Positions 5,027 through 60,915 of a stretch of 60,915 nucleotides of DNA are shown one piece after another; position 1 is the stretch's first letter; every line of letters begins with the position of its first letter. Both the position numbers and the translations under genes were made by a program. This stretch comes from an uncultured Gammaproteobacteria bacterium (GTDB taxonomy: Bacteria; Patescibacteriota; Patescibacteriia; CAIXNZ01). The DNA lies in NCBI GenBank assembly GCA_964400885.1, contig CAYNWH010000002.1, positions 24,668 through 85,582 of the forward strand, read 5' to 3'. The notes under the pieces were generated by a model that had not been told where the DNA came from, ran no database searches, and worked only from the letters and a program-made list of their open reading frames with translations.

Positions 5027-5128
5027 AATATACTAAATAAGGCTAAATTTTGAATTTTGAATTTTAAATAAAGGCTAAATGAATCAATTTAAAATTAAGA
5101 CATTAGAAATTCAATTAAAATTTATAAT

Positions 5129-6700
5129 ATGGATATCCACCAACAAATAGTAAAAAAACTAACCAAAACCAAATTCAACAGCCAACAGGAATTAAATTAC
5201 CAGATTCGCAAGATTGCTGGCAGTTTTAAAATGGCTGCGCCGCAAAAAATTAAACTGCTTTCAGCTTATCATAAATTGCTTAAACAAGGAAGTATTAAAA
5301 AGCAAAAAAAGCTTGAAAATTGGCTAAAAAAACGGGAAATCCGCACGCTTTCCGGCGTAGCGCCTATTGCAGTTTTAACCAAGCCTTACCCCTGCCCTGG
5401 CCAGTGCATTTATTGCCCGACTGAAAGCCAGATGCCTAAATCATATTTATCCAATGAGCCAGCAGTGATGCGGGCAATATTAAATAACTTTGATCCTTAT
5501 AAACAAGTAAAAATGAGATTAAGGGCTTTAGCCATGACTGGCCATAAAACTGACAAATGCGAATTAATTGTTATGGGTGGCACCTGGTCATATTTGCCGA
5601 AAAAATACCAAACCTGGTTTATTAAACGCTGTTTTGACGCTTTTAACCAAAAGACAGCTAAAACTTTAGAAAAAGCCCAAAAGTTAAATGAAACAGCTAA
5701 ATACCGCGTGATCGGCTTAACATTGGAAACCCGGCCCGATTACATTGATATTAAAGAAATCCAAAGAATGCGTGAACTGGGCTGCACTCGGGTTGAATTA
5801 GGCGTGCAAACTATTGACGACAAGATTTTAAAAATAACCCAGCGCGGCCATTTGACTGACCAGACAATTAAAGCCACTAAATTATTAAAAGATGCTGGCT
5901 TTAAAATTTCTTATCATATGATGCCCAACCTGCCCACTTCAACGCCAGCCAAAGATTTTAAAATTTTCCAAAAATTATTTACTAATCAAAATTTCCAGCC
6001 GGACATGCTAAAAATTTATCCTTGTGTAGTGACCAGAGATAGTAAGATTTATAACTGGTATAAAAAAGGTAAATATAAAGCTTACTCTGACAAACAGCTT
6101 TTAAATCTTTTAATAAAAATAAAAAAATATATTCCGCCTTATGTGAGAATTACGCGTTTAATCCGCGACATACCCAGCGAAAGTATTATGGCTGGCAATA
6201 AAATTTCCAATCTGCGCCAGTTAATTCAGGAAAAATTAAAAGCTAACAATGAATTTTGCCAGTGCATTCGTTGCCGGGAAGCACGTAATAAACAATTAAC
6301 ATTTAACAATTTACAGTTAACTATTAAAAAATATAAAGCATCAGACGGCCTGGAATATTTTTTAAGCTATGAATCAAAGGACAAAAAAACCTTATTTGCT
6401 TTTTTAAGATTAAGAATTCCGCGAAAACCTGATTCGGAAATAATTAAGGCTTTGCCAGAATTAAAAGATGCTGCTTTAATTCGCGAAGTCCATACTTATG
6501 GCACGCTTATTCCCTTAAAATCAAAACAAAAAGCTGTGCAGCATCTTGGGCTAGGCAAAAGATTAATGCAAGAAGCAGAGAAAATCGTTAAAAAACATAA
6601 ATTTAATAAAATTGCAGTAATTGCTGGCATTGGAGTCAGAGAATATTATAAAAAGCTAGGCTATAAGCTGGCCAATACATATATGGTCAAAAAACTTTGA
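5129..6700 (+). CDS. elp3: Elp3-type radical SAM + GNAT acetyltransferase (tRNA U34 modification family)
   Basis: 523 aa; CPGQCIYCP radical-SAM cluster motif, central Elp3 region, C-terminal GNAT (HLGLGKRLMQEAE). Confidence 0.8.
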   Translation: MDIHQQIVKKLTKTKFNSQQELNYQIRKIAGSFKMAAPQKIKLLSAYHKLLKQGSIKKQKKLENWLKKREIRTLSGVAPIAVLTKPYPCPGQCIYCPTESQMPKSYLSNEPAVMRAILNNFDPYKQVKMRLRALAMTGHKTDKCELIVMGGTWSYLPKKYQTWFIKRCFDAFNQKTAKTLEKAQKLNETAKYRVIGLTLETRPDYIDIKEIQRMRELGCTRVELGVQTIDDKILKITQRGHLTDQTIKATKLLKDAGFKISYHMMPNLPTSTPAKDFKIFQKLFTNQNFQPDMLKIYPCVVTRDSKIYNWYKKGKYKAYSDKQLLNLLIKIKKYIPPYVRITRLIRDIPSESIMAGNKISNLRQLIQEKLKANNEFCQCIRCREARNKQLTFNNLQLTIKKYKASDGLEYFLSYESKDKKTLFAFLRLRIPRKPDSEIIKALPELKDAALIREVHTYGTLIPLKSKQKAVQHLGLGKRLMQEAEKIVKKHKFNKIAVIAGIGVREYYKKLGYKLANTYMVKKL

Positions 6701-14747: not shown

Positions 14748-15656
14748 TTAGGCAACGCCGAGCAGCGTTGCCAAAGAAACGTCCGGAGCCTCCGGCTTGA
14801 TGTCCAGGCTGGAAAAACCGGCGGTGATTGCGGCGATCTGCTCGAACTTCTGCTTGACCACATTGGTGTCTGCGCCATCACGGTAAAGCTGTTTGTCGAG
14901 CATGCCGCCCTTATTGAGCTGGGCCATGGCATTAGCTACGCTCAGGTCAATGGTGTTAACACCGTCGACATAGGGCCAGAGACGGAACGAGCCAGCCGTG
15001 ATTTCATCCACCAGCAGGATCTCGCCTCCGGGACCCCAGCACAGCTCGTCGCGGGCATCTCTGTCCGTCAGGATGACGCCGATTTCGATCTTGTCATCCA
15101 TGTACTGGGCCTGGGACTTGGCAAAAGCCGCTTCCAGGGCCAGGAATTGCCGCAGCTTGAGCTGGGCGATCTGGCTGAACAGGTCCATTTTTTTCTTGCG
15201 CTCGATGGTCAGCAGGAATTGCGGATCCAGAAGCGGGTCATGCAGAAAATCGTCCTTGTAGAAAAACTGCAGGAAAGGCGGGGTGAAAACCGCGCCTTCG
15301 GAGATCTTGCCGGCCCACAGTTCCAGGATAGAACCAGTGGCTACCCGGCGCATGACCACTTCTAGCTTAAGGATCTGGGTCAATTTGCGCACGATGACGA
15401 TCCGCTCTTCCGGGGAACCCAGGTAGGCCATGGGAATCCCCTGACGTTTCAGAAACTCTAGGAGATCCCGATTGGTGCGCCAGTCAACCACGGCCTTGCC
15501 CTGGATGATATCGTGTTTTTGGCCGTCGCCAGCAGTGATATCATCCTTGAACTCCAGAACTTCCGTATCCTGATTCGCCTTGTTGGCCCAGACAATCTTG
15601 GTCTTGCCCTCGGCCAGCTTTTCCCCGCGTTCCCAATCTAAGTTCAACTCCGTCAT
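14748..15656 (-). CDS. purC: Phosphoribosylaminoimidazole-succinocarboxamide (SAICAR) synthase, long form
   Basis: 302 aa; GKTKIVW, EFKDDITAGDGQKHD, EVVMRRVATGS; GC-rich; AAGGAGG SD. Confidence 0.85.
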   Translation of the reverse strand: MTELNLDWERGEKLAEGKTKIVWANKANQDTEVLEFKDDITAGDGQKHDIIQGKAVVDWRTNRDLLEFLKRQGIPMAYLGSPEERIVIVRKLTQILKLEVVMRRVATGSILELWAGKISEGAVFTPPFLQFFYKDDFLHDPLLDPQFLLTIERKKKMDLFSQIAQLKLRQFLALEAAFAKSQAQYMDDKIEIGVILTDRDARDELCWGPGGEILLVDEITAGSFRLWPYVDGVNTIDLSVANAMAQLNKGGMLDKQLYRDGADTNVVKQKFEQIAAITAGFSSLDIKPEAPDVSLATLLGVA

Positions 15657-15659
15657 TTT

Positions 15660-16184
15660 TCAGTCCTCCTTTTCAGGTGATTTTTTTTTGTCCACCTCGG
15701 GGGGCCGAGGCTTTTTCTTGGCCTTGCTCTCGAAATGTTTTTCGAAAGCCATCTGATTCACCAATAAACCGGGGTTAGTGGCCAAAATAGCCAAGGCTGC
15801 ATAGCCGGCATTGGTCACGCCCATTTTACCGCTACCAACTACCATGACTGGCAGTCCTGGCGGCATGTGGATCAGGCCGTCCACATCGCAAAAACCGTCC
15901 GCGGCGTCCACTAAAGGGACCCCAATGACTGCCACATGAGGCAACTTGGCTTTGACTGCCGAAGGCAGGTCAGCCTTGAGCCCAACCACACAGATGATGA
16001 CTTTAATGTTTCGCCGATTCAATTCATAGCAAAAATCCTGAAGTTCATCTGAGTGGCGATGAGCTGACAAGACTGACATGGTCCAAGTCACCCCAAACTC
16101 ATTGAGAAGATCGTAAAGACCGCTCTCCTCAACCACCTTTTCATCACTTTGACTGCCTAAAATCACTGCAATCTGTTGTTCCAT
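15660..16184 (-). CDS. purE: PurE (N5-CAIR mutase / AIR carboxylase family) with Lys-rich C-terminal tail
   Basis: 174 aa; IAVILGSQSD, VLSAHRHS (SAHR, class-I-like), VIGVP; C-terminal KAKKKPRPPEVDKKKSPEKED. Confidence 0.8.
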   Translation of the reverse strand: MEQQIAVILGSQSDEKVVEESGLYDLLNEFGVTWTMSVLSAHRHSDELQDFCYELNRRNIKVIICVVGLKADLPSAVKAKLPHVAVIGVPLVDAADGFCDVDGLIHMPPGLPVMVVGSGKMGVTNAGYAALAILATNPGLLVNQMAFEKHFESKAKKKPRPPEVDKKKSPEKED

Positions 16185-16283
16185 CCTTTCCTCCTCTTTA
16201 TTTTGTGGTTAATCCTCGTAACCTTCTTAACTTTATTATCAAACAGCCGCTAAAGCTGTTCATTTTTTTAAAAAACTATTACT

Positions 16284-16312
16284 AAATTAACTTAACTACG
16301 AATAAAAGTCAA
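16284..16312 (-). promoter_or_regulatory. purE-purC promoter
   Basis: TTGACT-N17-TAATTT on the minus strand; the same hexamers and spacing as the purA promoter. Confidence 0.5.
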
Positions 16313-16324
16313 GAAGAGCGCACT

Positions 16325-16404
16325 CTGTCATTCAGAGGCCATGGGCCGAAGAATCCCTAACTTAATTAAATTCAGAGACTCTTCGCTAACGCTTTGAGTG
16401 ACAG
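16325..16404. repeat. Palindromic element in the purE/purH divergent region
   Basis: ctgtcattcagaggccatgggccgaagaatcc ... agactcttcgctaacgctttgagtgacag; shares the CTGTCAT-C-GAG module with 8550 and 13261. Confidence 0.65.
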
Positions 16405-16566
16405 ATTAATTCTTTTTATTGACGGATTAATCAATTTCCGCTAAGTTATAATCATTACGTCCTTTACAATCCCTTTTAACTAAGGGTTTTAGACAAAAAA
16501 AAGTTGAAATAGATTAGGTAACAAACAAATTTCAAACCCGCCTTTGGCGGACAAGGAGGAGATCAA

Positions 16567-18324
16567 ATGACAAAACAAAAAGTAGCGGCTAAAGCAGGCG
16601 GTAAAAAGCCCCAGGGAAAAAAAACAAAAATGGCAGCAGCCAAAAAGGCCAAGAGAGAAAAACCGGCCTTGAAGGGCTTAAAAATCCCCAAAGGCAAAAA
16701 AGTCGCCTTGATCTCGGTTTTTAACAAAACCGGGATCGTGGAATTTGCCCAGGCCCTGATCAAAATGGGCTGGGTGATCCTGTCTTCAGGCGGCACAGCC
16801 AAGAAACTGAGCGAAGCCGGCCTCAAAGTCACTGACGTGGCAGAGCTAGTCGGCGGCGGCGCTATCCTGGGCCATCGCGTGGTCACCTTATCGCGTGAAG
16901 TCCATGCCGGGCTTTTGGCGCGAGAAATTCCTGAAGACATCGAGGAAATGGAAAAGCTGGGACTGCCCTACATCCACATGGTGGTCTGCGACTTTTACCC
17001 CATGAAAGACATTATTACCAAGGCTGGCGCGACCATTGAGTCAGTCGTGGAAATGACTGACATTGGCGGGCCCACCATGGTCAGAAGCGCTGCCAAAGGT
17101 GGCCGCATAGTCATCTGCGACGCGGCTGACCGCGACTGGGTCTTGGAAAGAATGAAATCCAGGAAAAAACATGATCTTTCGCCTTTTGACATCCAGCATC
17201 TGCGGGCCAAAACGGAAATCGTGGTCAGCCAGTATTGCCTGGACTCGGCCAAGTTCCATAGCCAAGGACGCTTCACCGGCTTAGCCGGCCAGTTCCTGAA
17301 AAAGTGCAAGTATGGCGAAAATCCGTACATGAACGACGAGGTTACTGGCCTTTTCACCACCGGCAGCAAAGATCGTCTGGCTTTGGAAAACTTCCAGCTG
17401 ATCGAGGGCACGGATCCGTCATTCATCAACTACACAGACATGGATCGGTTGATGCAGAGCATCACCCATATCGCGGCTGGCTTTGACCTCAATTTCAGCC
17501 GCGTGCCCCTGATCGCCTGCGCAGTCAAGCACGGCAACCCGTGCGGCGCAGCCGTTGGCTATGACCCCAAAAAAGTCATTGCCAACATGGCCATGGGTGA
17601 TAACCTGGCGCTTTTCGGCGGCCTGGTCATGACCAACTTCCCCTTGACCGAGGAGCTGGTGGAACTGCTGATGACCATTAACCAGCCCCAAGGAAAAAGG
17701 CTGCTGCTTGATGGAGTCATGGCTCCGCATGTCACAGACGAAGCCATTGCCCTGCTCAAGCGCAAAACTGACAAGTGCCGCATCCTGGTCAACAAGCATC
17801 TGATGAACATCAACAAATCCAGCCTGGACACCAATGAGCGTATCAGGCCAGTGCGCGGCGGTTTCCTGCGCCAGCCCAATTACACCTATGTTCTGGATCT
17901 GTCCGATCCGCGGTTGGTCATCACCATGCCCAAGAACCATGACGGCCTGACCGAGCTCGACTACGAGGACATTACCCTGGCCTGGGGAGTGGGAGCTACT
18001 TCCAACAGCAACACGACCTGCCTGACTCGGGAAGGCCAACTGCTCGGTGACGGTGTGGGCCAGCAAAGTCGGGTTGCCAGCTGCCAAGTGGCAGTTTTCC
18101 GCACCAAAGCAGCTGGCCATCAGACAGGAGCATCTGTGGCCTACACAGACTCGTTCTGTCCGCAGCCTGACGCACCAGAAGTCCTGGCCAACGCAGGAGT
18201 CAGCATCCTGTTCGCCAGCTCTGGCTCAGTCAACGACAAAATCGTCCAGAAGACCTGCCAAAAACGCGGGCTCATCCTGATCCAGTTGCCAGACAAAGTC
18301 TGCCGTGGCTTTTTCGGCCACTAA
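16567..18324 (+). CDS. purH: Bifunctional AICAR transformylase / IMP cyclohydrolase with Lys-rich N-terminal extension
   Basis: 585 aa; MGS-like domain (ALISVFNKTGIVEFA, SSGGTAKKL), AICARFT domain (KHGNPCGAA); ~45-aa K-rich leader sequence; strong AAGGAGG SD. Confidence 0.9.
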   Translation: MTKQKVAAKAGGKKPQGKKTKMAAAKKAKREKPALKGLKIPKGKKVALISVFNKTGIVEFAQALIKMGWVILSSGGTAKKLSEAGLKVTDVAELVGGGAILGHRVVTLSREVHAGLLAREIPEDIEEMEKLGLPYIHMVVCDFYPMKDIITKAGATIESVVEMTDIGGPTMVRSAAKGGRIVICDAADRDWVLERMKSRKKHDLSPFDIQHLRAKTEIVVSQYCLDSAKFHSQGRFTGLAGQFLKKCKYGENPYMNDEVTGLFTTGSKDRLALENFQLIEGTDPSFINYTDMDRLMQSITHIAAGFDLNFSRVPLIACAVKHGNPCGAAVGYDPKKVIANMAMGDNLALFGGLVMTNFPLTEELVELLMTINQPQGKRLLLDGVMAPHVTDEAIALLKRKTDKCRILVNKHLMNINKSSLDTNERIRPVRGGFLRQPNYTYVLDLSDPRLVITMPKNHDGLTELDYEDITLAWGVGATSNSNTTCLTREGQLLGDGVGQQSRVASCQVAVFRTKAAGHQTGASVAYTDSFCPQPDAPEVLANAGVSILFASSGSVNDKIVQKTCQKRGLILIQLPDKVCRGFFGH

Positions 18325-18340
18325 TTCCTTTCACCAACTA

Positions 18341-18371
18341 AAAAAGGGATGCGTTTTCACGCATCCCTTTT
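18341..18371. terminator. Bidirectional terminator between convergent purH and purB
   Basis: AAAAA-gggatgcg-ttttca-cgcatccc-TTTT. Confidence 0.8.
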
Positions 18372-18393
18372 ACTATTGTTATGTTTTTGACCG

Positions 18394-19755
18394 TTATTGG
18401 AAACGGGCAAAAATAGTATTAATGTGCTTCAGATCCTCTTGCGGATCAAAGCATGTTTCCAGTTCCCTTCTACTCAGAATCTTGACGATTTTCTGATTCT
18501 TAAAAACTCGCTCTTGGAAAGTCGGACCGTCCGGATTGTCAAAGACTTCCCAGCAGAGATTCTGAATAAAGGTGTGAGCCGCTTCCCTGCCCATGCCTTT
18601 GCGCGTCAGGGCCAGCATGACTTTCTGGGAGAAAATCAAACCGCCAGTCAATTCCAAGTTGCGCTTCATGTTGCGCGGATTGACCTGCAATTTTTTGATG
18701 ATGCCGGCCATCCTGGCCAAGCTATAGTCGACCAATGCTGAAGAGTCAGGCAAAATGACGCGCTCAGCCGCGGAATTGGCAATATCCCGCTCATGCCAGG
18801 TGACCATGTTTTCCAGTGCTGTGACCACATAGCCCCGTAAAGTCCGGGAATTACTGCAAACGTTTTCCGGTCCAATGGGGTTGCGTTTGTGTGGCATGGC
18901 TGAACTGCCTTTTTGGCCGCGTACGAATTCTTCCTGCACCTCGGCGATCTCAGTACGTTGAAGGTTGCGTAGCTCAGTCCCCAACCTGTCCAATGTACCG
19001 CCGATCATAGCCATGAGCGTGACATACTCGGCATGCAGATCCCGGGGCAGAATCTGAGTGGAAATACGCGCCGGTTTAATGCACAGCAAGTTGCAGACCC
19101 GCTCTTCAATCCGGGGATCAATATTGGCATAAGTGCCGACTGCCCCGGAAATCTTTCCCACGCAGATCCGCTCCAGCATCTGAAAAAGCCGCTCTTTATG
19201 GCGCTCGAATTCGTCGACATAGACCAGCAGCTTGAACCCGAAAGTAATGGGCTCGGCCTGAACCCCGTGAGTCCGGCCGATTTGAACTTGATCCTTGTAC
19301 AACTTGGCTTTAGTCCTGATCTCAGCGATCAAGCGTTCCAAGTCTGCCCTGATCAGTCCAGCTGACGCTGCCAGAATGACGGACAAAGCCGTATCCTGCA
19401 CGTCATAAGAAGTAACACCCTGGTGAAATAAAGGCAGCAGCGCAGTCAGTTCCAGCTTTTTCAGCTGAAGAGTTACATGCTTAACAAAGGCCATAACATC
19501 ATGACGATTGCCCTTTTCCTTGACTGTGCCGTCCTTGTTCTTGGCACCGTTTTCAATGCGGTTAATAATATGCGGCTTGATAACCACCTTTTCACGGGCG
19601 ATTTCAATTTCTCGCCGCACCTGCTTTGCATTATTGACCAAGCCTAAATTGCACTTGGCCAAAATTATAGCTAACTCGACTTCCAGCCAAGTTTTGAACT
19701 TGTGCTGGTCGCTCCAGCAACTACCCATTTTCTTAGGCGTATACCTGGGTATCAT
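18394..19755 (-). CDS. purB: Adenylosuccinate lyase
   Basis: 453 aa; MIPRYTPKKM start, GSSAMPHKRNP signature, fumarate-lyase fold length; GC-rich; AAGGAGG SD. Confidence 0.9.
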   Translation of the reverse strand: MIPRYTPKKMGSCWSDQHKFKTWLEVELAIILAKCNLGLVNNAKQVRREIEIAREKVVIKPHIINRIENGAKNKDGTVKEKGNRHDVMAFVKHVTLQLKKLELTALLPLFHQGVTSYDVQDTALSVILAASAGLIRADLERLIAEIRTKAKLYKDQVQIGRTHGVQAEPITFGFKLLVYVDEFERHKERLFQMLERICVGKISGAVGTYANIDPRIEERVCNLLCIKPARISTQILPRDLHAEYVTLMAMIGGTLDRLGTELRNLQRTEIAEVQEEFVRGQKGSSAMPHKRNPIGPENVCSNSRTLRGYVVTALENMVTWHERDIANSAAERVILPDSSALVDYSLARMAGIIKKLQVNPRNMKRNLELTGGLIFSQKVMLALTRKGMGREAAHTFIQNLCWEVFDNPDGPTFQERVFKNQKIVKILSRRELETCFDPQEDLKHINTIFARFQ

Positions 19756-43371: not shown

Positions 43372-43586
43372 ATCTTTTAGTAATTAGTAATTAGTAATTA
43401 GTTATTGGTTATTAGTGATATGAATAAAAAAATCTACGGGACACCGTAGATACAACTATAAGCTATTAGCCATAGGCCATTTGCTAAAAGTCAATTCCCT
43501 CGATAGGTTTTACGCTTTAAAAGCCACCTATTGTCTACGGTTATATTAAGTTATAAACAGTATAACATAACCAAAAATATTGTCAA
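43372..43586 (-). promoter_or_regulatory. rplJ promoter and ~185-nt leader with internal terminator (candidate L10-leader-type attenuator)
   Basis: TTGACA-N16-TGtTATACT; atctacgg-tgtc-ccgtagat + TTTTTTT (43425-43451) lies inside the leader; then a 53-nt G-free tract up to the ATG. Confidence 0.45.
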
Positions 43587-43641
43587 GAAATCCATTAAAA
43601 TTACAAAGAGCTGCTATTATTAGCAGCTCTTTTTCTCTTTT

Positions 43642-43878
43642 TTAAGAGATTGTTTGGGCGTCAAATAATCTTTTTAAGCCCTTAATTACCTCTGGCGGCC
43701 CAGTAAATGTCAGCAGATCCCTGCCATCGCCATAGGCATCTTTACTGACGCTCACCTTAACTCCATGGGGTTTTAAAGCCAGAGCAATAATTTCAATTGT
43801 ATTGTCCATACCTCCGTTACCATTGCTCAGGCTTTTACCGACCTTGAAAACAGTTTTTTTTCCCTCATCCTTTGCCAT
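43642..43878 (-). CDS. Hypothetical protein (78 aa)
   Basis: CAAGGAGG SD; GC-richer; no recognised domain. Confidence 0.55.
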   Translation of the reverse strand: MAKDEGKKTVFKVGKSLSNGNGGMDNTIEIIALALKPHGVKVSVSKDAYGDGRDLLTFTGPPEVIKGLKRLFDAQTIS

Positions 43879-43996
43879 TTTTTCCTCCTTGGTTATTTTT
43901 TAACCCTGCTTGGGCAATAAAGTAGGGTTCTTTGTCCCTTAAGCGCTGTTTTAGGCGCCTAAATTTCCGCCGCTTTTTCCTATTGTTTACCTGCAC
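43865..43996 (-). CDS. Possible 43-aa Arg/Lys-rich upstream ORF (GTG start)
   Basis: AAAGGAGG SD 5 nt from GTG; VQVNNRKKRRKFRRLKQRLRDKEPYF...; overlaps the start of the 78-aa gene out of frame. Confidence 0.25.
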   Translation of the reverse strand: MQVNNRKKRRKFRRLKQRLRDKEPYFIAQAGLKNNQGGKNGKG

Positions 43997-44165
43997 TTTT
44001 TCCTCCTTTTGTTTTTTTATATTTTAAAAAACTGACCCAAGGGCCAGCTTTTTACTATTTGAATCTGTTAATTCTTATTTAAAACACACTTAAACAAGCT
44101 GGCCATTTACGTCCGCTAAAAAAGTAAAATGTATACCAAACTTGTTTATGGGTATTCATATGTAA

Positions 44166-44194
44166 ATTATATGAATAGTCTAAAATTTTGTCAA
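44166..44194 (-). promoter_or_regulatory. Consensus sigma70-type promoter of the 78-aa unit
   Basis: minus strand TTGACA-N17-TATAAT, immediately after the terminator of the 194-aa gene. Confidence 0.65.
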
Positions 44195-44231
44195 CAAGAA
44201 AGCCCTTGTGGTAATCCACAAGGGCTTTTAA

Positions 44232-44816
44232 TTAAGAGAAATGACTTTTCTCCTTATTAATAAAGCTTAAAGCCTGAGTAACAATTTCCGGTTTATAAAA
44301 CAAGCTCAAACTTTCAAGGTATTTGTTGCCTTCAATCAACTTAACCTGAAAATTCTTTGCTAAACTATCATCGGCTTGACGCACAAAAAGCGCTTTAATC
44401 TTGTGCAGACTGCAAACTGCATCTATGGCCTCAATATTACGTTTAATTTGAGTGCCAACTGATAAATGTTCTTTAAATCCTCCCTTAAGACCGCAACACA
44501 GACAAACTAAGGCATAAGGAGGTAATGGCCTGTTTAATTCTGAGCCATATTTAAGATTTAGGCTAATTTGCCAACGGGTGGCAATCTCTGAGTCGTTCCA
44601 AATCAGCCAAGCAAATTCGGGCACTAACTCTGAATGTAGCAATACGATTTCACCGCGTTCAACTTCCTTTACTCTGATCACTTCAAGTTTACTAGCTTTT
44701 GAGGTAAAGTAAACTGCTTCGCTCAAAGGGGTTAATTTAATCAGTTCTTCTTTAAATTCAGCCGCAGATTGAGAATCAGGCTTAAACTCAAAAATCCTAT
44801 ACAATCTTAAACTCAT
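44232..44816 (-). CDS. Uncharacterised 194-aa protein under tandem SAM-riboswitch control
   Basis: AAGGAGG SD 7 nt upstream of the internal ATG (MSLRLYRIFEF...); not hydrophobic; no recognised domain; own terminator agcccttgtgg-atta-ccacaagggct. Confidence 0.7.
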   Translation of the reverse strand: MSLRLYRIFEFKPDSQSAAEFKEELIKLTPLSEAVYFTSKASKLEVIRVKEVERGEIVLLHSELVPEFAWLIWNDSEIATRWQISLNLKYGSELNRPLPPYALVCLCCGLKGGFKEHLSVGTQIKRNIEAIDAVCSLHKIKALFVRQADDSLAKNFQVKLIEGNKYLESLSLFYKPEIVTQALSFINKEKSHFS

Positions 44817-44871
44817 TTCCCTACCTCCTTGTCTTTTGTTGTTTAAAGAACACTTTGGGACGATAAGCAAA

Positions 44872-44902
44872 TAAAAAAATCTTTCCCAAAAGAGAAAGAT
44901 TT
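44872..44902 (-). terminator. Expression-platform terminator of SAM riboswitch B
   Basis: minus strand aaatctttc-tcttttg-ggaaagatt + TTTTTT; the 3' arm GGAAAGAT is identical to the aptamer P1 3' strand. Confidence 0.8.
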
Positions 44903-44926
44903 GAACTCAAAAAATTGAACTACCAG

Positions 44927-45031
44927 TTATCTTTCCCTTTTACAAGGGCGGAAATTAGCACCTACTGGCTGGTTTTTGCCAGGGTTGCCGCACAGGTCAC
45001 GGAGTCCGAACTCTCACTGTGCTCTTGATAA
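44927..45031 (-). promoter_or_regulatory. SAM-I (S-box) riboswitch aptamer, copy B (variant P2)
   Basis: minus strand TTATCAAGAGCACAG...CTGTGCGGCAACCCTGG...CCAG..GGTGCTAATTTCCGCCCTTGTAAAAGGGAAAGATAA; P1-P4 pairings are readable. Confidence 0.75.
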
Positions 45032-45062
45032 TTTTTTATTCAATTGTTAATGTACTCTAGTT

Positions 45063-45101
45063 AAAAACAAAAAATCTTACGCGCTACGAGGGGGTAAGAT
45101 C
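45063..45101 (-). terminator. Expression-platform terminator of SAM riboswitch A
   Basis: minus strand atcttac-cccctcgtagcgc-gtaagat + TTTTTGTTTTT; GATCTTACCCC can alternatively pair with the aptamer GGGGAAGAT. Confidence 0.75.
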
Positions 45102-45117
45102 TAAAATATATAACTTA

Positions 45118-45241
45118 TTATCTTCCCCCATGAGGCGGGGCTGGATTTAGCACCTTATCCTACAAAGCGTTATAAACGGCTTGGTAAGGTAGGTTGCTGG
45201 CAGAATCATGAGGCCAGTTCCGGATTCTGCTCTCTTGATAA
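45118..45241 (-). promoter_or_regulatory. SAM-I (S-box) riboswitch aptamer, copy A
   Basis: minus strand TTATCAAGAGAGCAGAATCCGGAACTGGCCTCATGATTCTGCCAGCAACC...GGTGCTAAATCCAGCCCCGCCTCATGGGGGAAGATAA matches S-box core strings (UAUCAAGAGAG, ACUGGCC, AUGA, GCAACC, GGUGCUAAAUCC, GAAGAUAA). Confidence 0.85.
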
Positions 45242-45267
45242 CTACTTATTCAGTTTTAACTATAAGC

Positions 45268-45296
45268 ATTATAGCATATCTAAACTTTTTTGTCAA
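45268..45296 (-). promoter_or_regulatory. Consensus promoter driving the tandem riboswitch leader
   Basis: minus strand TTGACA-N17-TATAAT with TGc extended -10. Confidence 0.7.
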
Positions 45297-45302
45297 ATCT
45301 CC

Positions 45303-45770
45303 TTATTTATGATATTCACTACCAGCTAAAATTTCAAAAGCCCGATAAATTTGTTCTAAAAGTAAAACCCTGATTAATTGATGAGTAAAAGTCATTTTGG
45401 AAAATGACAAAACCAAATCAACATTGGTTAAAACTTTTTCTGATAAGCCTAGAGGCCCGCCAATTATAAAACAAATTCTCGCGCTTTTAAAGTCGCGGAC
45501 TTCCTCAATTAAGTTAGCAAATTCCTCAGAAGTCTTTTGCTGGCCTAAAGAGTGCAAAGCAATATTAAAATAATCTTTATTTAATTTATCCAAGATCCGC
45601 TCCCCTTCTATTGCCATAATTTCCTCAGCCAAACGATTTTTTGTAATCGGCTCTTCTTTTAAATTCAAAACTTCCACTTCTGCATATCTTTGCAACCGCT
45701 TTAAAAATTCTGCTTCAGCCTCGCTATATTCTAATTTAGTTTTAGAAATAGTGATAATTTTTATTCTCAT
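45303..45770 (-). CDS. rlmH: 23S rRNA (pseudouridine1915-N3)-methyltransferase
   Basis: 155 aa SPOUT; ICFIIGGPLG, FSKMTFTHQL, EQIYRA. Confidence 0.9.
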   Translation of the reverse strand: MRIKIITISKTKLEYSEAEAEFLKRLQRYAEVEVLNLKEEPITKNRLAEEIMAIEGERILDKLNKDYFNIALHSLGQQKTSEEFANLIEEVRDFKSARICFIIGGPLGLSEKVLTNVDLVLSFSKMTFTHQLIRVLLLEQIYRAFEILAGSEYHK

Positions 45771-45836: not shown

Positions 45837-47135
45837 TTAATCCCTCCAGGGATTTTGCATGATAATGGTCTGGCCTTTGTGTTGTCCGACTGAGATGGCC
45901 ACCAGCGGCACACCAGCCAGTTGGCTGATCATAAGGAAAAGTTTTTGCGCTGCTTTGGGCAAGTCCTCAAAGGCCCGACAGCCAGAGATGTCATTGTCAA
46001 AGCTGCCCATTTCCTGGAAATGAGGCTGAACATCCTGAAGATCCAGGGTATCAAGTTCATCCAAGTCTCGGATGATTCTATCTCCCTGCTGGTAATAGTC
46101 ACAGACCATGGTGTTGATGCCTTGTAAAACATCGCCCTTAGTAATGACTACTCCAGTCAGCCCACCGACACGAGAAGCTGCTCTAGTTTGCGGACCATCA
46201 TGCCAGCCGACACGTCTGGGGCGACCAGTTGAAGCGCCATACTCCTGGCCGCGCGCTCTGATTTCCTCGCCCAAGTCGCCGTCAAGCTCGGTCGGGAAAG
46301 GACCGCCGCCGACTCTGGTGCAATAAGCCTTGGTCACGCCATAGACCTCGTCAATCAGGGTGGGACCAATGCCGGCGCCAGAACAGGCACCACCAGCCAA
46401 GGTACAGGATGAAGTGACGTAAGGATAGGTGCCGTGGGTCTTGTCTAGACCTGGGCCCTGGGCCAGCTCGATCAGCACATTTTGCTCGCTGTCCCTAGCC
46501 TGGGTGACGATCTTGGACAACGGCTCCTTAAGGATGTAAGGCTCCAAGATCTGCCTGGCTTGCTCCAAGAAAGTCATGATGTCCTCGACCGTGTAAGTCT
46601 GACCGCCCCAATGAGCCAGTTCCGGATTTATTTCATTGAGGATGGTCTTGACATAAGCACGAATTTGCTCCAGATGCAGCAAGTCCGTCACCCGCAGGCC
46701 TAAACGCCTGACCTGCATTTCATAGGTAGTGCCAATGCCCCGTCCAGTGGTGCCAATGGCTGCCTTGCCCCGAGCATGTTCCCGGAATTTTTCCAGGTCC
46801 AAGCAATAAGGCATGACCAGCTGGGCCAAACGCGAGACCCCAAGCTGCTGGCATCTCAAAAAGCCCTTGGCTGTCAGGTCGGTGATCTCCTGTTCAAATC
46901 CCGTGGGATAAATGACCATGTCATTCCCCAAAAAACAACGTGCCCGGGAATGACTTACCGCACTGGGAGCCAGATGAGTGACAGCTTTTACGCCATCAAC
47001 AAATTGGGTATGGCCAGAATTAGCCCCGCCAGCTACCCGGACCACCACGTCAGCATCTTCGCCAAATTCATGAACCAATCGACCTTTGCCTTCGTCACCC
47101 CATTGATTGCCACCGTAAACAATTAATCTACCCAT
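45837..47135 (-). CDS. purA: Adenylosuccinate synthetase
   Basis: 432 aa from the SD-supported ATG (CAAGGAGG-N7-ATG; MGRLIVYGGNQWGDEGKG); GTTGRGIG, TKGDVL; very GC-rich; the 36-aa N-terminal extension of the track ORF was discarded. Confidence 0.9.
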   Translation of the reverse strand: MGRLIVYGGNQWGDEGKGRLVHEFGEDADVVVRVAGGANSGHTQFVDGVKAVTHLAPSAVSHSRARCFLGNDMVIYPTGFEQEITDLTAKGFLRCQQLGVSRLAQLVMPYCLDLEKFREHARGKAAIGTTGRGIGTTYEMQVRRLGLRVTDLLHLEQIRAYVKTILNEINPELAHWGGQTYTVEDIMTFLEQARQILEPYILKEPLSKIVTQARDSEQNVLIELAQGPGLDKTHGTYPYVTSSCTLAGGACSGAGIGPTLIDEVYGVTKAYCTRVGGGPFPTELDGDLGEEIRARGQEYGASTGRPRRVGWHDGPQTRAASRVGGLTGVVITKGDVLQGINTMVCDYYQQGDRIIRDLDELDTLDLQDVQPHFQEMGSFDNDISGCRAFEDLPKAAQKLFLMISQLAGVPLVAISVGQHKGQTIIMQNPWRD

Positions 47136-47233
47136 CACTACCTCCTTGTGATGAAGCCAACCCGGATCGGGTGGGTGAATGTTCGAAACACAATATCTAT
47201 ATAAAAAGAGCTGTAAATTACAACCCCTTTCTA

Positions 47234-47269: not shown

Positions 47270-47824
47270 TTATGCACAGTAACTTATTTGCAAGCCAGTG
47301 CCAATGTCTTTTAATTCGCTTTTATATTTTTCATCGTGATTAACATAATATAAATAATCACTCATAGCATGTTTATGCGAAATAGCATTATCAGCAATTA
47401 TAATTGCGCCTGGCTTTAATTTTGGCTCTAGTAATTTTAATTGCTGTAAATATTCATTTTTACGACCATCCAAAAAGACAAAATCAACTTTTTCATTTAA
47501 TTCCCCTAACCTCTTATTAGCATCGTCAGGAATAATTTCAACATATTTAATTAAGCCGGTTTTTTGCAAATTAGAAACTAAATCCCGGACTTTTTCTGGC
47601 ACAAATTCATAAGTAATTAATTTGGCGCCAACTTCTTTAGCTGCCTGAGCCAGCCAAATTGTTGAATAGCCATTGGAAGCACCAACTTCCACAATTACTT
47701 CTGGCTTATTCTTCAAAACTAATTTAGACAAAAACAGACCAGTGTCACGAGAAATGTTCCACTGGCCGCCCTGCTGATTTAATTCTTCAAGTTTTTTTAA
47801 AATTTTATTTATTTTTTCTTCCAT
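47270..47824 (-). CDS. Class I SAM-dependent O-methyltransferase (COMT-like family 3)
   Basis: 184 aa; EVGASNGYSTIWLA, VDFVFLDGRK. Confidence 0.75.
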   Translation of the reverse strand: MEEKINKILKKLEELNQQGGQWNISRDTGLFLSKLVLKNKPEVIVEVGASNGYSTIWLAQAAKEVGAKLITYEFVPEKVRDLVSNLQKTGLIKYVEIIPDDANKRLGELNEKVDFVFLDGRKNEYLQQLKLLEPKLKPGAIIIADNAISHKHAMSDYLYYVNHDEKYKSELKDIGTGLQISYCA

Positions 47825-47826
47825 TT

Positions 47827-48408
47827 TTATTTACTTCTACGTTTTAACTCTAGATCGTACATTATTTCTTCAATTTTTCTTAAATTATTTTTTGACTGAT
47901 CAAATTTCGGCCTTAATTTACCAAGCAGATTAAATTTAATGAGCTCGCCAACCACTTCTTCAATTGCCTGCTCGCAAGTTGCTACTTCCTTATAGCGATG
48001 CCTAGTAGCTAAAAAAACAGCCCTGCGGACTAATTCACCAGTAAAATCACAAAGTCCGCCCAAATAACTTTCCACATCAATAACCTGGCCATTAATTGAG
48101 GTAATTTTACCGGTTTTAATAAAATGCAAAAATAATTTAGCTTCCACGTATTCTTCCATCCCAGCCAAATAAGCTCCTTCATATTGCAAAGCTTCTTCTT
48201 TTTTTATTTTAGTCTGAAGATATTTTAATATTTTCTCAGCCTCATTCAAATCGCTTTCCGCTTGCTTAATATCTTCACGATGAGTGGCAAAGATAGCCTG
48301 TTTAGCAAATTTTAAGACATCATTTGAATGCTTAATAATTATTCTGCGACCGATATCATAAGAACTATACTCTTTAAGCAACTTACTAAAAAATTTTTTA
48401 TCAATCAT
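47827..48408 (-). CDS. Translin-family-like protein
   Basis: 193 aa all-helical; GMEEYVEAKLF and YLGGLCDFTGELVRRAV resemble translin/TRAX signature segments (from memory). Confidence 0.5.
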   Translation of the reverse strand: MIDKKFFSKLLKEYSSYDIGRRIIIKHSNDVLKFAKQAIFATHREDIKQAESDLNEAEKILKYLQTKIKKEEALQYEGAYLAGMEEYVEAKLFLHFIKTGKITSINGQVIDVESYLGGLCDFTGELVRRAVFLATRHRYKEVATCEQAIEEVVGELIKFNLLGKLRPKFDQSKNNLRKIEEIMYDLELKRRSK

Positions 48409-51818: not shown

Positions 51819-53411
51819 CTATATCAAAGAAGTCCCAGTCATCTCTTTTGGCTTTTTAACTCCCATAATTTTTAAAATTGTCGGAGCCACATCAGCCAAT
51901 ACGCCAGAGGGTGTAACTAAGCTTAAATCAGAACCCGGCCCTTCTGGCAGTCCAATATTTTTTCCTTCCCATTGATTACCAATAATAAGCAGGGGTACAG
52001 GATTAGTACTATGTTCTTTATCAATATCCCCTGTTTGAATATTTTGCAATTCCTCAGCATTGCCATGATCAGCGGTAATTGCTACCACTCCATCTTTACT
52101 TAAAACAAGTCTTACAATTTTGCCTAAACATTTATCTACTACTTCGCAGGCCTTGATCGTAGCTTTTAAATTGCCGGTATGAGCAACCATATCAGGATTA
52201 GCAAAATTCACAATATAAAGATCATATTTATTATCTGAAACAGCTTTCAATATTTCATCACAGACCTTTAAAGCTGACATTTCCGGCTTCTGATCATAAG
52301 AAGGCACGCGAGGTGAAGGAATAACAATCCTGTCTTCGCCAGGAAATGGTTCTTCTTGCCCGCCATTAAAGAAAAAAGTAACATGCGCATATTTTTCAGT
52401 TTCCGCAATATGTAATTGTTTTAAACCAGCATCGCTTATGACCTTGGCCAATGGTTCTTTTATTTCTACGGGCGGAAAAGCAATCGCATCAACTGGCAAA
52501 TCCTTATCATACTGCGTCATTCCAACAAAAAACAAATTTTTGAACTCCGAAGGTCTTTCAAATTTAGAAAAATCTGGCAAAACAAAAGCGCTTGTTATTT
52601 GCCTGGCACGATCAGCTCTAAAATTAAAAAATATTAAAGCATCTTTATCCTCAACTAATACGACTGGCTTATTTTTATAAGTAATCACCACTGGCACAAA
52701 TTCTTCATCATAAATCTTTTTTTCATAAGAGTTTTCAATTGCTTTTATAGGATTATCAAATTTTTCATCACTTTCGCCTTTAGTCATGGCAAGAAAAGCT
52801 TTTTCAGTTCTTTCCCAATGGTTATCTCGGTCCATGGCATAAAATCTGCCTGACAAAGTAGCAATTTTAGCATTAACCTTTAACTCTTTTATTTTAGCTA
52901 ACAGCTCTTCTATAAATCCTTTGCCACTATTATAAATCGTGTCCCTACCGTCTAAAATTGCATGAATATAAACTTCTCTTATATTTTGGCGCTTGGCAAA
53001 TTCAAGCAAAGCATAAAGATGTTCTGTATGAGAATGCACTCCGCCACTGCTAACTAAACCCAAAAGATGAAGTTTTGATCCATTTTTTTTTACATGATCA
53101 GCAGCATCCAAAAAAGCTTTATTTTCAAAAAAAGACCCATCCAATACAGACTTGCTTATGCGCGGCAAACTCTGATAAAAAATAAGACCAGCACCTAAAT
53201 TAGTATGACCAACTTCTGAATTGCCCATTTCACCCCATGATAAACCTACTGAATCGCCAGAAGCAGCTAAGGTTAAAGCCGGATAAGTCGCTATATATTT
53301 ATTAAGATTAGGGGTTTTTGCCTTGGCAATGGCATTTCCAGGACTGTCTGGTGCGATTCCCCAACCATCGAGAATAATCAAAATCACAGGCCTATTTTTT
53401 AATTTTGCCAT
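51819..53411 (-). CDS. gpmI: 2,3-bisphosphoglycerate-independent phosphoglycerate mutase, paralogue 1
   Basis: 530 aa; ILDGWG, GNSEVGHTNLGAG, TADHGNAE. Confidence 0.9.
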   Translation of the reverse strand: MAKLKNRPVILIILDGWGIAPDSPGNAIAKAKTPNLNKYIATYPALTLAASGDSVGLSWGEMGNSEVGHTNLGAGLIFYQSLPRISKSVLDGSFFENKAFLDAADHVKKNGSKLHLLGLVSSGGVHSHTEHLYALLEFAKRQNIREVYIHAILDGRDTIYNSGKGFIEELLAKIKELKVNAKIATLSGRFYAMDRDNHWERTEKAFLAMTKGESDEKFDNPIKAIENSYEKKIYDEEFVPVVITYKNKPVVLVEDKDALIFFNFRADRARQITSAFVLPDFSKFERPSEFKNLFFVGMTQYDKDLPVDAIAFPPVEIKEPLAKVISDAGLKQLHIAETEKYAHVTFFFNGGQEEPFPGEDRIVIPSPRVPSYDQKPEMSALKVCDEILKAVSDNKYDLYIVNFANPDMVAHTGNLKATIKACEVVDKCLGKIVRLVLSKDGVVAITADHGNAEELQNIQTGDIDKEHSTNPVPLLIIGNQWEGKNIGLPEGPGSDLSLVTPSGVLADVAPTILKIMGVKKPKEMTGTSLI

Positions 53412-53414
53412 ATT

Positions 53415-54998
53415 TTATATAGATTTATTTTTTATTAAAGTTTTGCCAGTCATTTCCTTTGGCTTCTCAACATCTAATAGCTGCAGAATACTAGGCGAGA
53501 CATCGGCTAAAATGCCATCTTTACGCAAATGTAAATTTTTATGATTAAAATCTTGATTAACAAGGATAAAAGGAACTGGATTCGTACTATGCTCAGTATC
53601 CATCTCACCTGTTTTCAAATTCATCATTTCCTCGACATTGCCATGATCTGCAGTTATAATCATGGTACCTTTTAATCTTTTTATAAAATTATAAATTCTG
53701 CCTAAACTTTTATCTACGACCTCAATGGCCTTAATCGCTGCCTTTAAATTCCCCGTATGGCCAAGCATATCTGCATTAGGAAAATTTATGGTAATAAAAT
53801 TAACTTCTCTTTCCCTTAATTTTCTCAAGATAATATTAGTAAGTCTATAACTAGACATTTGCGGCTGCTTAACATAATTATTCTGCCCTAAAGAAGGGAT
53901 AACTTCCCATTCTTCATCATTAACTGGCTGACTATAGCCGCCATTAAAGAAATAAGTCACATGAGCATATTTTTCCCGTTCGGAAATATATAGCTGTTTA
54001 AAATCTTTTAAAACAAAGGGCAAGGTATTTTCTAAAATAATACTGGGATGAGCAGTCAAAACGCTATCCAAATCAGGCCCAAAATCAGTTAAAGCGATAA
54101 ATTTAATATTTTTTAAAATTTTCTTTCTTTTAAATCCGCCGCCATTTCTTTTTTCAAAATTTTTCTGGACAAAAGGCTTGGTCATTTGCCTGGCACGATC
54201 AGACCTTAAATTAAAAAAGATAATTGCATCATTATCATTAATAAATTTTGCTTTTTTTCTTGGATTTAAAATCACTGTAGGAGTAATAAATTCATCAGTT
54301 TCTCCCCGGTTATAAGCTTCACCAACTGCTTTATAAGGATTATCAGAAGTAATTCCCTCGCCTAAAACCATGGCATTATAAGCCATTTCTGTCCTTTGCC
54401 AGGCTTTAATTCTATCCATAGCATAAAACCGGCCTATAATAGTAGAAATAATCTCATTATTTTCAAAATTATTAATCAATTTACTGACCAATCTGGCGCC
54501 AGCATGCGGCGATGAATCACGTCCATCTGTAAAAAGATGCAGATAAACGCGATGAAATTTTCTTTGTTTAAAAAAATCTAAAAGAGCATATAAATGCTCG
54601 GGCTGAGAATGAGCGCTCTGACCATCAGATAAAAGACCCATTAAATGAATATTAGATTTGAATTTTTTTGCATGATCAACCGCCTCAATAAAAGCTGGGT
54701 TTTTAAAAAAAGTACCATTTTTAATAGTCTCAGTAATATAAACTGCATCTTGCTTTACGATCCTGCCGGCACCAATATTCATGTGGCCTGCTTCTGAATT
54801 ACCATCCTGCCCCTTAGGCAAGCCCACTTTTTGTCCATGAGCAACTAAAGTTGTATTGGGATATTTTCTATAAAAAAAATCCATAATTGGCGTGTCAGCC
54901 AAACTTATGGCATTGGAAAGAGAAGCTGGTGCAATTCCCCAGCCGTCAAGAATAATCAAAATTAAGGGTAAAAATTTCTGTTTTACTTCTTTTTTCAT
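53415..54998 (-). CDS. gpmI: 2,3-bisphosphoglycerate-independent phosphoglycerate mutase, paralogue 2
   Basis: 527 aa; ILDGWG, GNSEAGHMNIGAG, TADHGNVE; 3-nt gap to paralogue 1. Confidence 0.9.
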   Translation of the reverse strand: MKKEVKQKFLPLILIILDGWGIAPASLSNAISLADTPIMDFFYRKYPNTTLVAHGQKVGLPKGQDGNSEAGHMNIGAGRIVKQDAVYITETIKNGTFFKNPAFIEAVDHAKKFKSNIHLMGLLSDGQSAHSQPEHLYALLDFFKQRKFHRVYLHLFTDGRDSSPHAGARLVSKLINNFENNEIISTIIGRFYAMDRIKAWQRTEMAYNAMVLGEGITSDNPYKAVGEAYNRGETDEFITPTVILNPRKKAKFINDNDAIIFFNLRSDRARQMTKPFVQKNFEKRNGGGFKRKKILKNIKFIALTDFGPDLDSVLTAHPSIILENTLPFVLKDFKQLYISEREKYAHVTYFFNGGYSQPVNDEEWEVIPSLGQNNYVKQPQMSSYRLTNIILRKLREREVNFITINFPNADMLGHTGNLKAAIKAIEVVDKSLGRIYNFIKRLKGTMIITADHGNVEEMMNLKTGEMDTEHSTNPVPFILVNQDFNHKNLHLRKDGILADVSPSILQLLDVEKPKEMTGKTLIKNKSI

Positions 54999-59730: not shown

Positions 59731-60915
59731 TTAATGGGTTGCACAACTAATGCAAGGATCATAAGCCCTGACTAGAGTACGGATCTTTATACGGCGTTTA
59801 TGAATAGGCAGTTTATATATATCAGGCAAATATACTTTTAAATCAGCTTCTAGATTAGCCAAAAACTGCGCAGTCGGCGTAATAATATTAGCGGCTAAAA
59901 CCTTGCCATTTTTATCAAATTTATAATAATCAAGCAAAAGCCCGCGCGGCGCTTCAACCGCACCATAACCTTCGCTTGCTTTTAGCCTAACTTTAACCTT
60001 AATATTTTTCTGGTCAATTTTGCCGAGTTGTTTGAAAATTTTTCTAATTTCCTCTAAGCAGTGGACAATTTCTACAGCCTGAGCATAAACATTATAAAAA
60101 GTATTATAACAAGGCATGGCTAAATCTGCTTTTTGCCACAATTTCTTTGCTTGAGTATTTAATTTATCAAAATTTATATTAACTCTGGCTAGAGCGCCGC
60201 TAAAATAAGGTTTTTTACCCAAATTAACGCGCTTAACCTTTTCAAACGGCTGATGCAATTCTTTAATTGTATTATAAAATTCAGCAATCTTTATTTGCTC
60301 ACCTTTACTAGTCATAATGTCACCCCATAAAACTTCATATTCATTCTTATTATATAAAGAGATAAATTCTGTTTCTCTTTTAAAGTCAGGAACTCTTATT
60401 TTACTAACAAATTCAGCGACAGAGACAGCATCTTCTAAAAGTTGGTTGTAATTTTTCATTAATTTATTAATTTCTTCCATGGCTGGCAATTTTTTAAATC
60501 CCCCGACTTCAATGGTCAACGGATGAACAGTTCGGCCGCCAATCAGCTTAACCATATCAATGGCAAATTTTCTGACTCTTAAAATTGCATGAGTTTGTTT
60601 CGGATATTTTTTAATAAAATTCAAATCATTCTCTATCTCAAAAAAATCAGGCAAAGAAAGAAAAAACATATGCAAGGCATGAGAATGGATAATTTGCAGC
60701 AATTCCATAACTTTACGCAAAGCAATTGTCTGTTCACTAACTTTAATGCCAAAAGCTGTTTCAATTGCATGAGTTGAAGATATAAAATGGACAATCGGAC
60801 AAATACCGCAAATTCTGCCAGTAATCATAGGCACTTCAAAATAATCGCGACCCAAAAGTATGCCTTCAATCAGGCGCGCGCCTTCTAAAGTCTCCATTTT
60901 AGCCTTTTTTACATC
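59731..60915 (-). CDS. [NiFe]-hydrogenase large subunit (5'-partial, runs off the window)
   Basis: RICGICPIVH (N-terminal Ni-ligand motif) and C-terminal DPCISCATH followed directly by stop; the reading frame stays open to the window edge. Confidence 0.85.
   Translation of the reverse strand, partial: DVKKAKMETLEGARLIEGILLGRDYFEVPMITGRICGICPIVHFISSTHAIETAFGIKVSEQTIALRKVMELLQIIHSHALHMFFLSLPDFFEIENDLNFIKKYPKQTHAILRVRKFAIDMVKLIGGRTVHPLTIEVGGFKKLPAMEEINKLMKNYNQLLEDAVSVAEFVSKIRVPDFKRETEFISLYNKNEYEVLWGDIMTSKGEQIKIAEFYNTIKELHQPFEKVKRVNLGKKPYFSGALARVNINFDKLNTQAKKLWQKADLAMPCYNTFYNVYAQAVEIVHCLEEIRKIFKQLGKIDQKNIKVKVRLKASEGYGAVEAPRGLLLDYYKFDKNGKVLAANIITPTAQFLANLEADLKVYLPDIYKLPIHKRRIKIRTLVRAYDPCISCATH

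Follow-up and report, generated by a model that had tools for sequence, protein, structure and literature searches.

The minus strand of a 60,915-nt stretch of contig CAYNWH010000002.1 from a Patescibacterium (positions 24,668 to 85,582; hereafter, the window) carries two SAM-I (S-box) riboswitches for S-adenosylmethionine (SAM), arranged in series ahead of a single gene. The gene encodes a 194-aa protein whose family is rare and is marked by an invariant CxCC motif (hereafter, the CxCC family). Each riboswitch unit comprises a full-length aptamer and its own expression platform, in which an antiterminator and a terminator are alternative pairings. Judged from its sequence, unit 2 has a good terminator and almost certainly works as a SAM sensor. 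Unit 1 lacks the kink-turn (k-turn) of SAM-I aptamers and would be the weaker of the two sensors. The RNA device alone adds little, because tandem SAM-I riboswitches are already catalogued and how they work is, in principle, understood. Of some value is the family, which is known so far only from Patescibacteria, has no recognisable fold, and makes a moderate lead.

The entire window was searched with cmscan against Rfam 15 (4227 families) at gathering thresholds, and three matches were returned. Two of them are to RF00162 (SAM; gathering score, 44.4 bits), and both cover the whole model (positions 1-108 of 108). Aptamer 1 scores 48.8 bits (E 3.6e-08), only 4 bits over the gathering score, and aptamer 2 scores 59.2 bits (E 3.4e-11). 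The lower score of aptamer 1 is due in part to a ~22-nt extension of its P3. A permissive Rfam rescan of positions 43380-45400 returned no family that outscored RF00162; the competitors from the SAM clan scored lower. In addition, the four-way junction of P1-P4 is the minimum-free-energy (MFE) fold of each aptamer taken in isolation. An earlier note, made from the letters of the window, had recognised two complete S-box aptamers at 45241-45118 and 45031-44927, with P1-P4 helices that could be drawn by hand, and had proposed the covariance search; the cmscan matches end within 3 bases of those positions, and the MFE folds contain P1-P4.

The leader starts at a sigma-70-type promoter, which matches the TTGACA-N17-TATAAT consensus at 12/12 positions, includes the extended -10 TG, and had been noticed ahead of the aptamers in the same reading. 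The promoter begins 7 nt past the rlmH stop codon (stop at 45303), and neither the sequence nor a simple terminator scan reveals a terminator in between. No promoter-like sites were found between the aptamers, leaving 45296-45268 as the sole promoter of the tandem leader. One 5' untranslated region contains two SAM-I aptamers, both with an expression platform of their own, and no promoter in between, which is the definition of a tandem same-ligand arrangement (PMC9481103).

Aptamer 2 is canonical. In its P2, G45015 and A45014 (of the UGA at 45016-45014) face G44998 and A44997 across the bulge CGU 45001-44999, forming a k-turn. Its P2 loop is positioned to form a pseudoknot with J3/4 (CGGA 45008-45005 with UCCG 44952-44949). 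Aptamer 2 therefore combines a full-model score, a four-way junction, a P2 k-turn and a pseudoknot, as expected of a SAM-I aptamer. Aptamer 1 retains the complete core of the SAM pocket (UUAUCAAGAG, GCAACC, GGUGCUAA, and AGAUAA) and a pseudoknot (CUGG 45217-45214 with CCAG 45144-45141). The two copies were compared in the cmscan alignments. Both keep the conserved nucleotides U4, A6, U7, A87, and U88 of P1, G11 and A12 of J1/2 together with A61, and G43, C44, A45, C47, G56, U57, G58, and C59 of P3 (for the list of highly conserved and ligand-contacting positions, see PMC3764141). In particular, the G11-C44-G58 triple, by which the methionine moiety is recognised (PMC3764141), is kept. P2, P3, P4, and the pseudoknot show compensatory changes between the copies. 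For example, P2a is CAGA/UCUG in aptamer 1 and ACAG/CUGU in aptamer 2, P4 is CCCC/GGGG and CCCUU/AAGGG, and the pseudoknot is CUGG:CCAG and CGGA:UCCG, respectively. Therefore, neither copy is a fresh duplicate of the other or an obviously decaying one. The earlier statement that both copies carry the S-box core strings holds, the pocket being intact in both; the implied equivalence of the copies does not, aptamer 1 being devoid of a k-turn.

Each aptamer is followed by a switch. In unit 1, GGGGGAAGAU overlaps the 3' strands of P4 and P1 of aptamer 1 and is the 5' half of antiterminator 1. The segment AUCUUAC pairs either within this antiterminator or with GUAAGAU 45080-45074 in the stem of terminator 1, a hairpin at 45102-45072 with a 9-bp stem and a 13-nt loop, which the simple terminator scan did not pick up. 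Unit 2 is built in the same way, and its terminator hairpin (44902-44877) was found by the simple terminator scan too. The classical S-box OFF logic is present in both units. The calculated energies and overlaps agree with the earlier description of a hairpin and U-tract after each aptamer, the 5' arm of which can alternatively pair with the 3' strand of P1.

The leader opens into the 194-aa coding sequence (CDS). Right behind the CDS lie a hairpin of -22.3 kcal/mol and, at 44194-44166 of the minus strand, a new promoter with a 12/12 match to consensus. Therefore, the regulated unit is monocistronic, and the earlier note was right in placing a single gene before the next terminator (hairpin 44228-44199).

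The 194-aa protein has no match in Pfam or NCBIfam and no paralogue in the window. A word-indexed search of 5.8 billion proteins retrieved only the protein itself, and nothing was found among GTDB representatives searched with the single sequence. Exhaustive phmmer against 1.84 billion representatives gave 15 relatives (E 2e-7 to 5e-4, ~30% identity), and a profile search gave 14. All named members are assigned to the Patescibacteria group, Ca. Uhrbacteria, or Ca. Saccharibacteria, and all members are soluble by hydropathy. Five positions are invariant among 25 family sequences, namely A69, F144, and the three cysteines of the CxCC (C105, C107, and C108), which comes after a beta strand; E45, T80, C135, R146, and E162 are nearly so. 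The window protein has four cysteines in total, which are the conserved C105, C107, C108, and C135. AlphaFold2 with a 14-sequence alignment yields an alpha/beta model with a predicted local distance difference test score (pLDDT) of 79 and a predicted template-modelling score (pTM) of 0.76; the single-sequence prediction is unusable (pLDDT 42). In the model, the conserved polar and cysteine residues are mostly located at, or right after, the ends of predicted strands. Foldseek with this model finds no match in the PDB (best E 0.96, template-modelling score <0.3) and none in BFVD (best E 1.1), and profile searches of the PDB with the family give nothing below E 0.5. The placement of the conserved residues in the model suggests that the protein may be an enzyme or bear a metal or cluster site. 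The earlier note had described the protein as uncharacterised, soluble, and without a recognisable motif, and had recommended profile searches and structure prediction. The first two descriptions stand and those searches came back empty; the protein does have a motif, the invariant CxCC of a rare family. Scans with Pfam, NCBIfam, PHROGs, and PADLOC over all family members give no consistent match, and a scan of viral contigs gives no relative. A defence-system or phage origin of the family was considered and is unsupported, as the PHROGs, PADLOC, and viral contig scans are empty.

To examine the association between the S-box and the family, the upstream DNA of 12 other independent CxCC-family contexts was scanned with Rfam and a pattern; a sub-alignment search added few loci. 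A SAM-I riboswitch is present in one of the 12, on a metagenomic contig (locus L013, SRR22388083). The aptamer (3202-3308, 57.5 bits) keeps A at position 1n of the k-turn and is followed by a U-tailed terminator of 20 bp (3388-3432), the 5' arm of which, CCCUUAUC, has the P1 3' strand GAUAGGG as an alternative partner. The tightly spaced operon behind it (3452-5662), closed by a terminator at 5669-5690, encodes proteins of 173 aa, the family member P0023, 266 aa, and 94 aa, in this order. None of the four has a Pfam match, and the three others have no relative in the window or the other loci. The 266-aa protein contains DnaJ-like CxxCxGxG zinc-finger repeats. P0023 belongs to a separate clade from the window protein, with which it shares 24% identity; its closest relatives (44% identical) have no S-box. 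The GC content of L013 is 0.49, versus 0.37 for the window. With the index case included, an S-box accompanies 2 of 13 family contexts versus none of the ~170 other genes in the ~190 kb scanned.

Several observations weigh against a functional link between the S-box and the family. No known riboswitch was found in 11 of the 12 other contexts, and no other riboswitch class appears upstream of these homologues when, in loci with sufficient upstream sequence, the limit is relaxed to E<=1. With the index case excluded, the count is 1/12, which is marginal (p~0.04-0.06, a rough estimate). A TrmB-family winged helix-turn-helix regulator adjoins the CxCC gene in four contexts, divergently in two, and the Uhrbacteria copies of the family are divergent from dus. 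No match that would point to the chemistry of the protein came from Pfam, NCBIfam, PHROGs, PADLOC, PDB sequences, or Foldseek searches of the PDB and BFVD. In the TrmB-adjacent lineages, a dedicated regulatory protein may take the place of the riboswitch in controlling the family. In an all-against-all BLAST comparison of the neighbours, the TrmB-family regulator is the only partner that recurs (in these four contexts), apart from lineage-local synteny. No enzyme of methionine (Met), cysteine (Cys), or SAM metabolism stands beside the family gene in any context, except MsrB two genes off in locus L011.

These observations are what an incidental link would leave behind, in which a lineage-specific gene came to lie behind an older leader, or SAM serves as a proxy for nutrition or the host, and the protein plays no part in the metabolism of SAM, methionine, or sulfur. 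In addition to the riboswitch-less majority, found beside TrmB-type regulators or in unrelated neighbourhoods, and the want of adjacent Met/Cys/SAM enzymes, such a link would fit the lack of any homologue above ~32% identity in about 15 billion proteins, though relatives with 84-87% identical DnaB are present among them. Against it, the family member of L013, from another clade and another organism, also lies in an S-box-gated operon, and the ~190 kb scanned contain no S-box beside any other gene. Moreover, most genes in the S-box regulons described to date serve Met/Cys/SAM synthesis and transport (PMC10853860, PMC12452182). We regard an incidental link as the most credible alternative, though on balance improbable, and the link of the CxCC family to SAM or methionine as suggestive. 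The earlier note had seen a strong lead to SAM- or methionine-related biology and had asked for a survey of homologues. The second S-box in L013 speaks for such a lead, but comparative support is thin, with an S-box in 1 of 12 other contexts; the lead is moderate.

The second difficulty lies in unit 1. P2 of aptamer 1 is an 8-bp Watson-Crick helix (GCAGAAUC 45230-45223 with GAUUCUGC 45207-45200), interrupted by a plain bulge, (U)CAU 45211-45208. The 3n, 2n, and 1n positions of the k-turn are A, U, and C, which make Watson-Crick pairs with U, A, and G, where the consensus is g-G-A. Consequently, the sheared G.A pairs at 1b.1n and 2b.2n that define a k-turn in P2 are missing. In the T. tengcongensis aptamer, the substitution A1nC alone makes SAM binding undetectable, and so does the combination of A1nC, G2nU, and G3nU, which creates a 'simple three-nucleotide bulge' (PMC3651934). 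Replacement of the k-turn by a flexible pk-turn keeps binding at 300 uM, compared with 0.54 uM, a loss of affinity put at about 1000-fold (PMC3672288). Terminator 1 is weak as well (-7.1 kcal/mol, 13-nt loop). By analogy with the mutants, unit 1 may be non-functional as a SAM sensor.

The replaced k-turn, together with the T. tengcongensis data, indicates that unit 1 is either a low-affinity sensor or a relic. A crippled relic would still fold but, for want of a k-turn, would neither dock its P2 loop nor bind SAM at the concentrations in a cell. At most, it would weakly and constitutively terminate or pause transcription, or end the purA-rlmH transcript; only unit 2 would work, and the leader would be functionally a single S-box. 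The lost k-turn and the non-binding mutants with equivalent changes (PMC3651934), the score only just over the gathering score, the weak terminator, and the missing terminator after rlmH are all compatible with a relic. On the other hand, the SAM contacts, the pseudoknot, and the overlapping antiterminator and terminator have been kept though the helices have diverged from those of copy 2, which argues for continued selection. The related SAM-I/IV aptamers bind SAM although they are not known to have a k-turn, and this, too, counts against a relic. A flexible element other than a k-turn also supports SAM binding, with lower affinity (PMC3672288). Because the pocket and the pseudoknot are intact and the overlap in the platform is precise, we lean somewhat towards a weak but functional unit 1, and consider a leader with unit 2 as its only working switch unlikely.

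It is very improbable that one or both aptamers are specificity variants for another ligand, like the rare spermidine-sensing variants, which look like SAM-I to the covariance model and have changed conserved pocket nucleotides and polyamine genes (speE, speB, ldcC, and metK) (PMC10853860): although the gene association is atypical and aptamer 1 is structurally deviant, the conserved pocket positions are the SAM-I consensus in both copies (the variants being compared by description), the downstream gene is not a polyamine gene according to Pfam and NCBIfam, and the deviation of aptamer 1 lies in the peripheral k-turn, not in the pocket.

We propose that the tandem leader works as follows. Transcription from the promoter at 45296-45268 would produce a leader of ~445 nt with two SAM-I transcription-attenuation units in series. 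In each unit, SAM binding would stabilise P1 and deny the P1/P4 3' strand to the antiterminator, whereupon the U-tailed hairpin would form and RNA polymerase would stop. Read-through into the gene would require both units to be unliganded, so that their outputs would multiply. Unit 1 would probably serve as a lower-affinity, leakier pre-filter, and the pair would form an unequal two-stage gate. At high SAM, unit 1 would probably also terminate transcripts arriving from purA-rlmH, because there is no terminator after rlmH. The CxCC protein, which would depend on a metal, an iron-sulfur cluster, or thiols, would be made only at low SAM and would be tied to the methionine, SAM, and sulfur economy.

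Taken as a whole, the role of the protein included, we judge this explanation probable. The computation delivers the aptamers, the alternative pairings, the gene boundaries, the family, and its motif, whereas we infer that the units bind SAM and terminate transcription, that unit 1 is the weaker, and what the protein does. An extended version is rather doubtful: the CxCC family would be an unrecognised component of SAM, methionine, or sulfur homeostasis in Patescibacteria, maybe a salvage enzyme that depends on a metal or thiols and whose fold the PDB lacks; at least two lineages would independently have brought it under SAM-I riboswitches; and the window would combine, unusually, a k-turn-less, low-affinity unit with a canonical, high-affinity one. 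Patescibacteria depend on hosts for most metabolites. A gene expressed only at low SAM would be a rare handle on their methyl-donor and sulfur supply. The features described above are collected in Table 1.

Table 1 Features of the tandem SAM-I leader and its regulated gene in the window, and TrmB-family regulators beside CxCC-family genes in other loci.
Feature	Position	Strand	Basis
Sigma-70-type promoter, TTGACA-N17-(TG)nTATAAT	45268-45296	-	12/12 match, TG present
SAM-I aptamer 1	45115-45244	-	48.8 bits; MFE four-way junction
Antiterminator 1: GGGGGAAGAU 45129-45120 with AUCUUACCCCC 45100-45090	45090-45129	-	-15.7 kcal/mol
Terminator 1: AGAUCUUAC 45102-45094 with GUAAGAUUU 45080-45072, then U6GU5	45063-45102	-	-7.1 kcal/mol
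SAM-I aptamer 2, canonical	44924-45034	-	59.2 bits; MFE P1-P4 fold
Antiterminator 2: AAAAGGGAAAGAU 44941-44929 with AUCUUUCUCUUUU 44900-44888	44888-44941	-	-19.3 kcal/mol
Terminator 2: 11-bp stem, UUUU loop, U7 tail	44870-44902	-	-11.8 kcal/mol, z -3.9
Ribosome-binding site AAGGAGGT, 6 nt ahead of ATG	44823-44830	-	Sequence
CDS, 194-aa soluble protein of a rare family	44232-44816	-	Open reading frame; homologue searches
Terminator hairpin closing the regulated unit: 13 bp, AUUA loop	44199-44228	-	-22.3 kcal/mol, z -7.5
TrmB-family regulators	L004 3981-4772; L009 2392-3150; L014 1774-2568; L018 3-536		

The closest named relatives of the window DnaB, 82-87% identical to it, are from Ca. Uhrbacteria, Parcubacteria, Buchananbacteria, and the Patescibacteria group, which places the host among the Patescibacteria. 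Two genes for SAM-dependent methyltransferases, an O-methyltransferase and RlmH, lie directly upstream of the leader on the same strand. No metK and no Met or Cys biosynthesis gene was found among the 30 window open reading frames (ORFs) scanned against Pfam. An O-methyltransferase gene (47270-47824) adjoins a gene for a translin-family protein (PF01997, E 1.4e-23; 47827-48408, minus strand), here in a bacterial genome. The purA gene (45837-47138) is GC-rich, like an island at 14748-19755 (~0.50 vs ~0.35 for the genome) that contains the late purine genes purC, purE, purH, and purB, which suggests that the branch of purine synthesis to inosine and adenosine monophosphates was acquired horizontally in a Patescibacterium. 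Two paralogous genes for cofactor-independent phosphoglycerate mutase lie side by side (51819-54998), and the edge of the window has a gene for the large subunit of NiFe-hydrogenase (59731-60897).

On the other side of the regulated unit, the promoter at 44194-44166 is followed after ~110 nt by a terminator-like hairpin with a U-run (44047-44032; the region spans 44020-44194 of the minus strand). A candidate antiterminator downstream of the promoter pairs GGCCAGCUU 44104-44096 with AAGCUGGCC 44050-44042. The region has no Rfam match; it may represent a small RNA or an attenuator of a class not yet described. Past the hairpin are two ORFs, one of 43 aa that is very basic (43865-43996) and an orphan of 78 aa (43642-43878). 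Further on, an ordinary autoregulatory L10 leader (RF00557, 66.6 bits; 43416-43558, minus strand) precedes rplJ-rplL. Among the other loci, a Saccharibacteria contig (L020) contains a sub-threshold match to the DUF3800-IX RNA (4407-4466, minus strand; 33.3 bits, gathering score 36.8) beside a DUF3800 gene (3659-4411).

Our literature search found no natural riboswitches described in Patescibacteria; a review mentions riboswitches only as a possible genetic tool. Elsewhere, a catalogue of SAM-I arrangements lists 164 doubles and one triple, which are read as pseudo-cooperative (Sherlock et al. 2022; PMC9481103). In Bacillota, tandem SAM-I riboswitches are enriched upstream of metNIQ, hom, ssuABC, and amhX (PMC12452182). 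Like the catalogued doubles, the window has two complete units in one 5' untranslated region, both OFF switches for the same ligand with their own intrinsic terminators, and would give the same pseudo-cooperative response, steeper and tighter than that of a single unit. It differs from them in its host, a Patescibacterium, in its gene, which encodes a CxCC protein and not an enzyme or transporter for Met or SAM, and in its structurally unequal units, unit 1 having no k-turn.

Under a simple independent-sites model, the concentration range over which output falls from 90 to 10% is 81-fold with one unit and 40-fold with two, and the second unit raises maximal repression to its square. The earlier expectation that two switches in series give a steep or tight response is borne out by this model and by the pseudo-cooperativity precedent; the tacit assumption of identical units is not, and with 164 known doubles the arrangement is less unusual than supposed. 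The tandem thiamine pyrophosphate (TPP) riboswitches of Bacillus anthracis tenA were reportedly tested in vitro by Welz and Breaker in 2007. They resemble the window in placing independent units for the same ligand in series, which makes the output more digital without true cooperativity. They belong to another ligand and aptamer class.

The closest counterpart for the gene is the single SAM-I operon of L013, in which an aptamer and a terminator likewise precede a CxCC-family member. Unlike the window, L013 has one aptamer, which keeps A at position 1n of its k-turn, and its family gene is the second of four uncharacterised ones. The closest counterpart for unit 1 is the plain-bulge mutant of the T. 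tengcongensis aptamer. In aptamer 1, the natural residues at 1n, 2n, and 3n are C, U, and A, giving G-C, A-U, and U-A pairs beside a bulge of 3-4 nt, a local arrangement shared with the mutant. Unlike the mutant, which shows no SAM binding, aptamer 1 has all else in place, the expression platform included, and carries a long extension of P3, so that compensation is possible. Aptamer 1 is thus a natural test of whether a SAM-I aptamer works without a k-turn.

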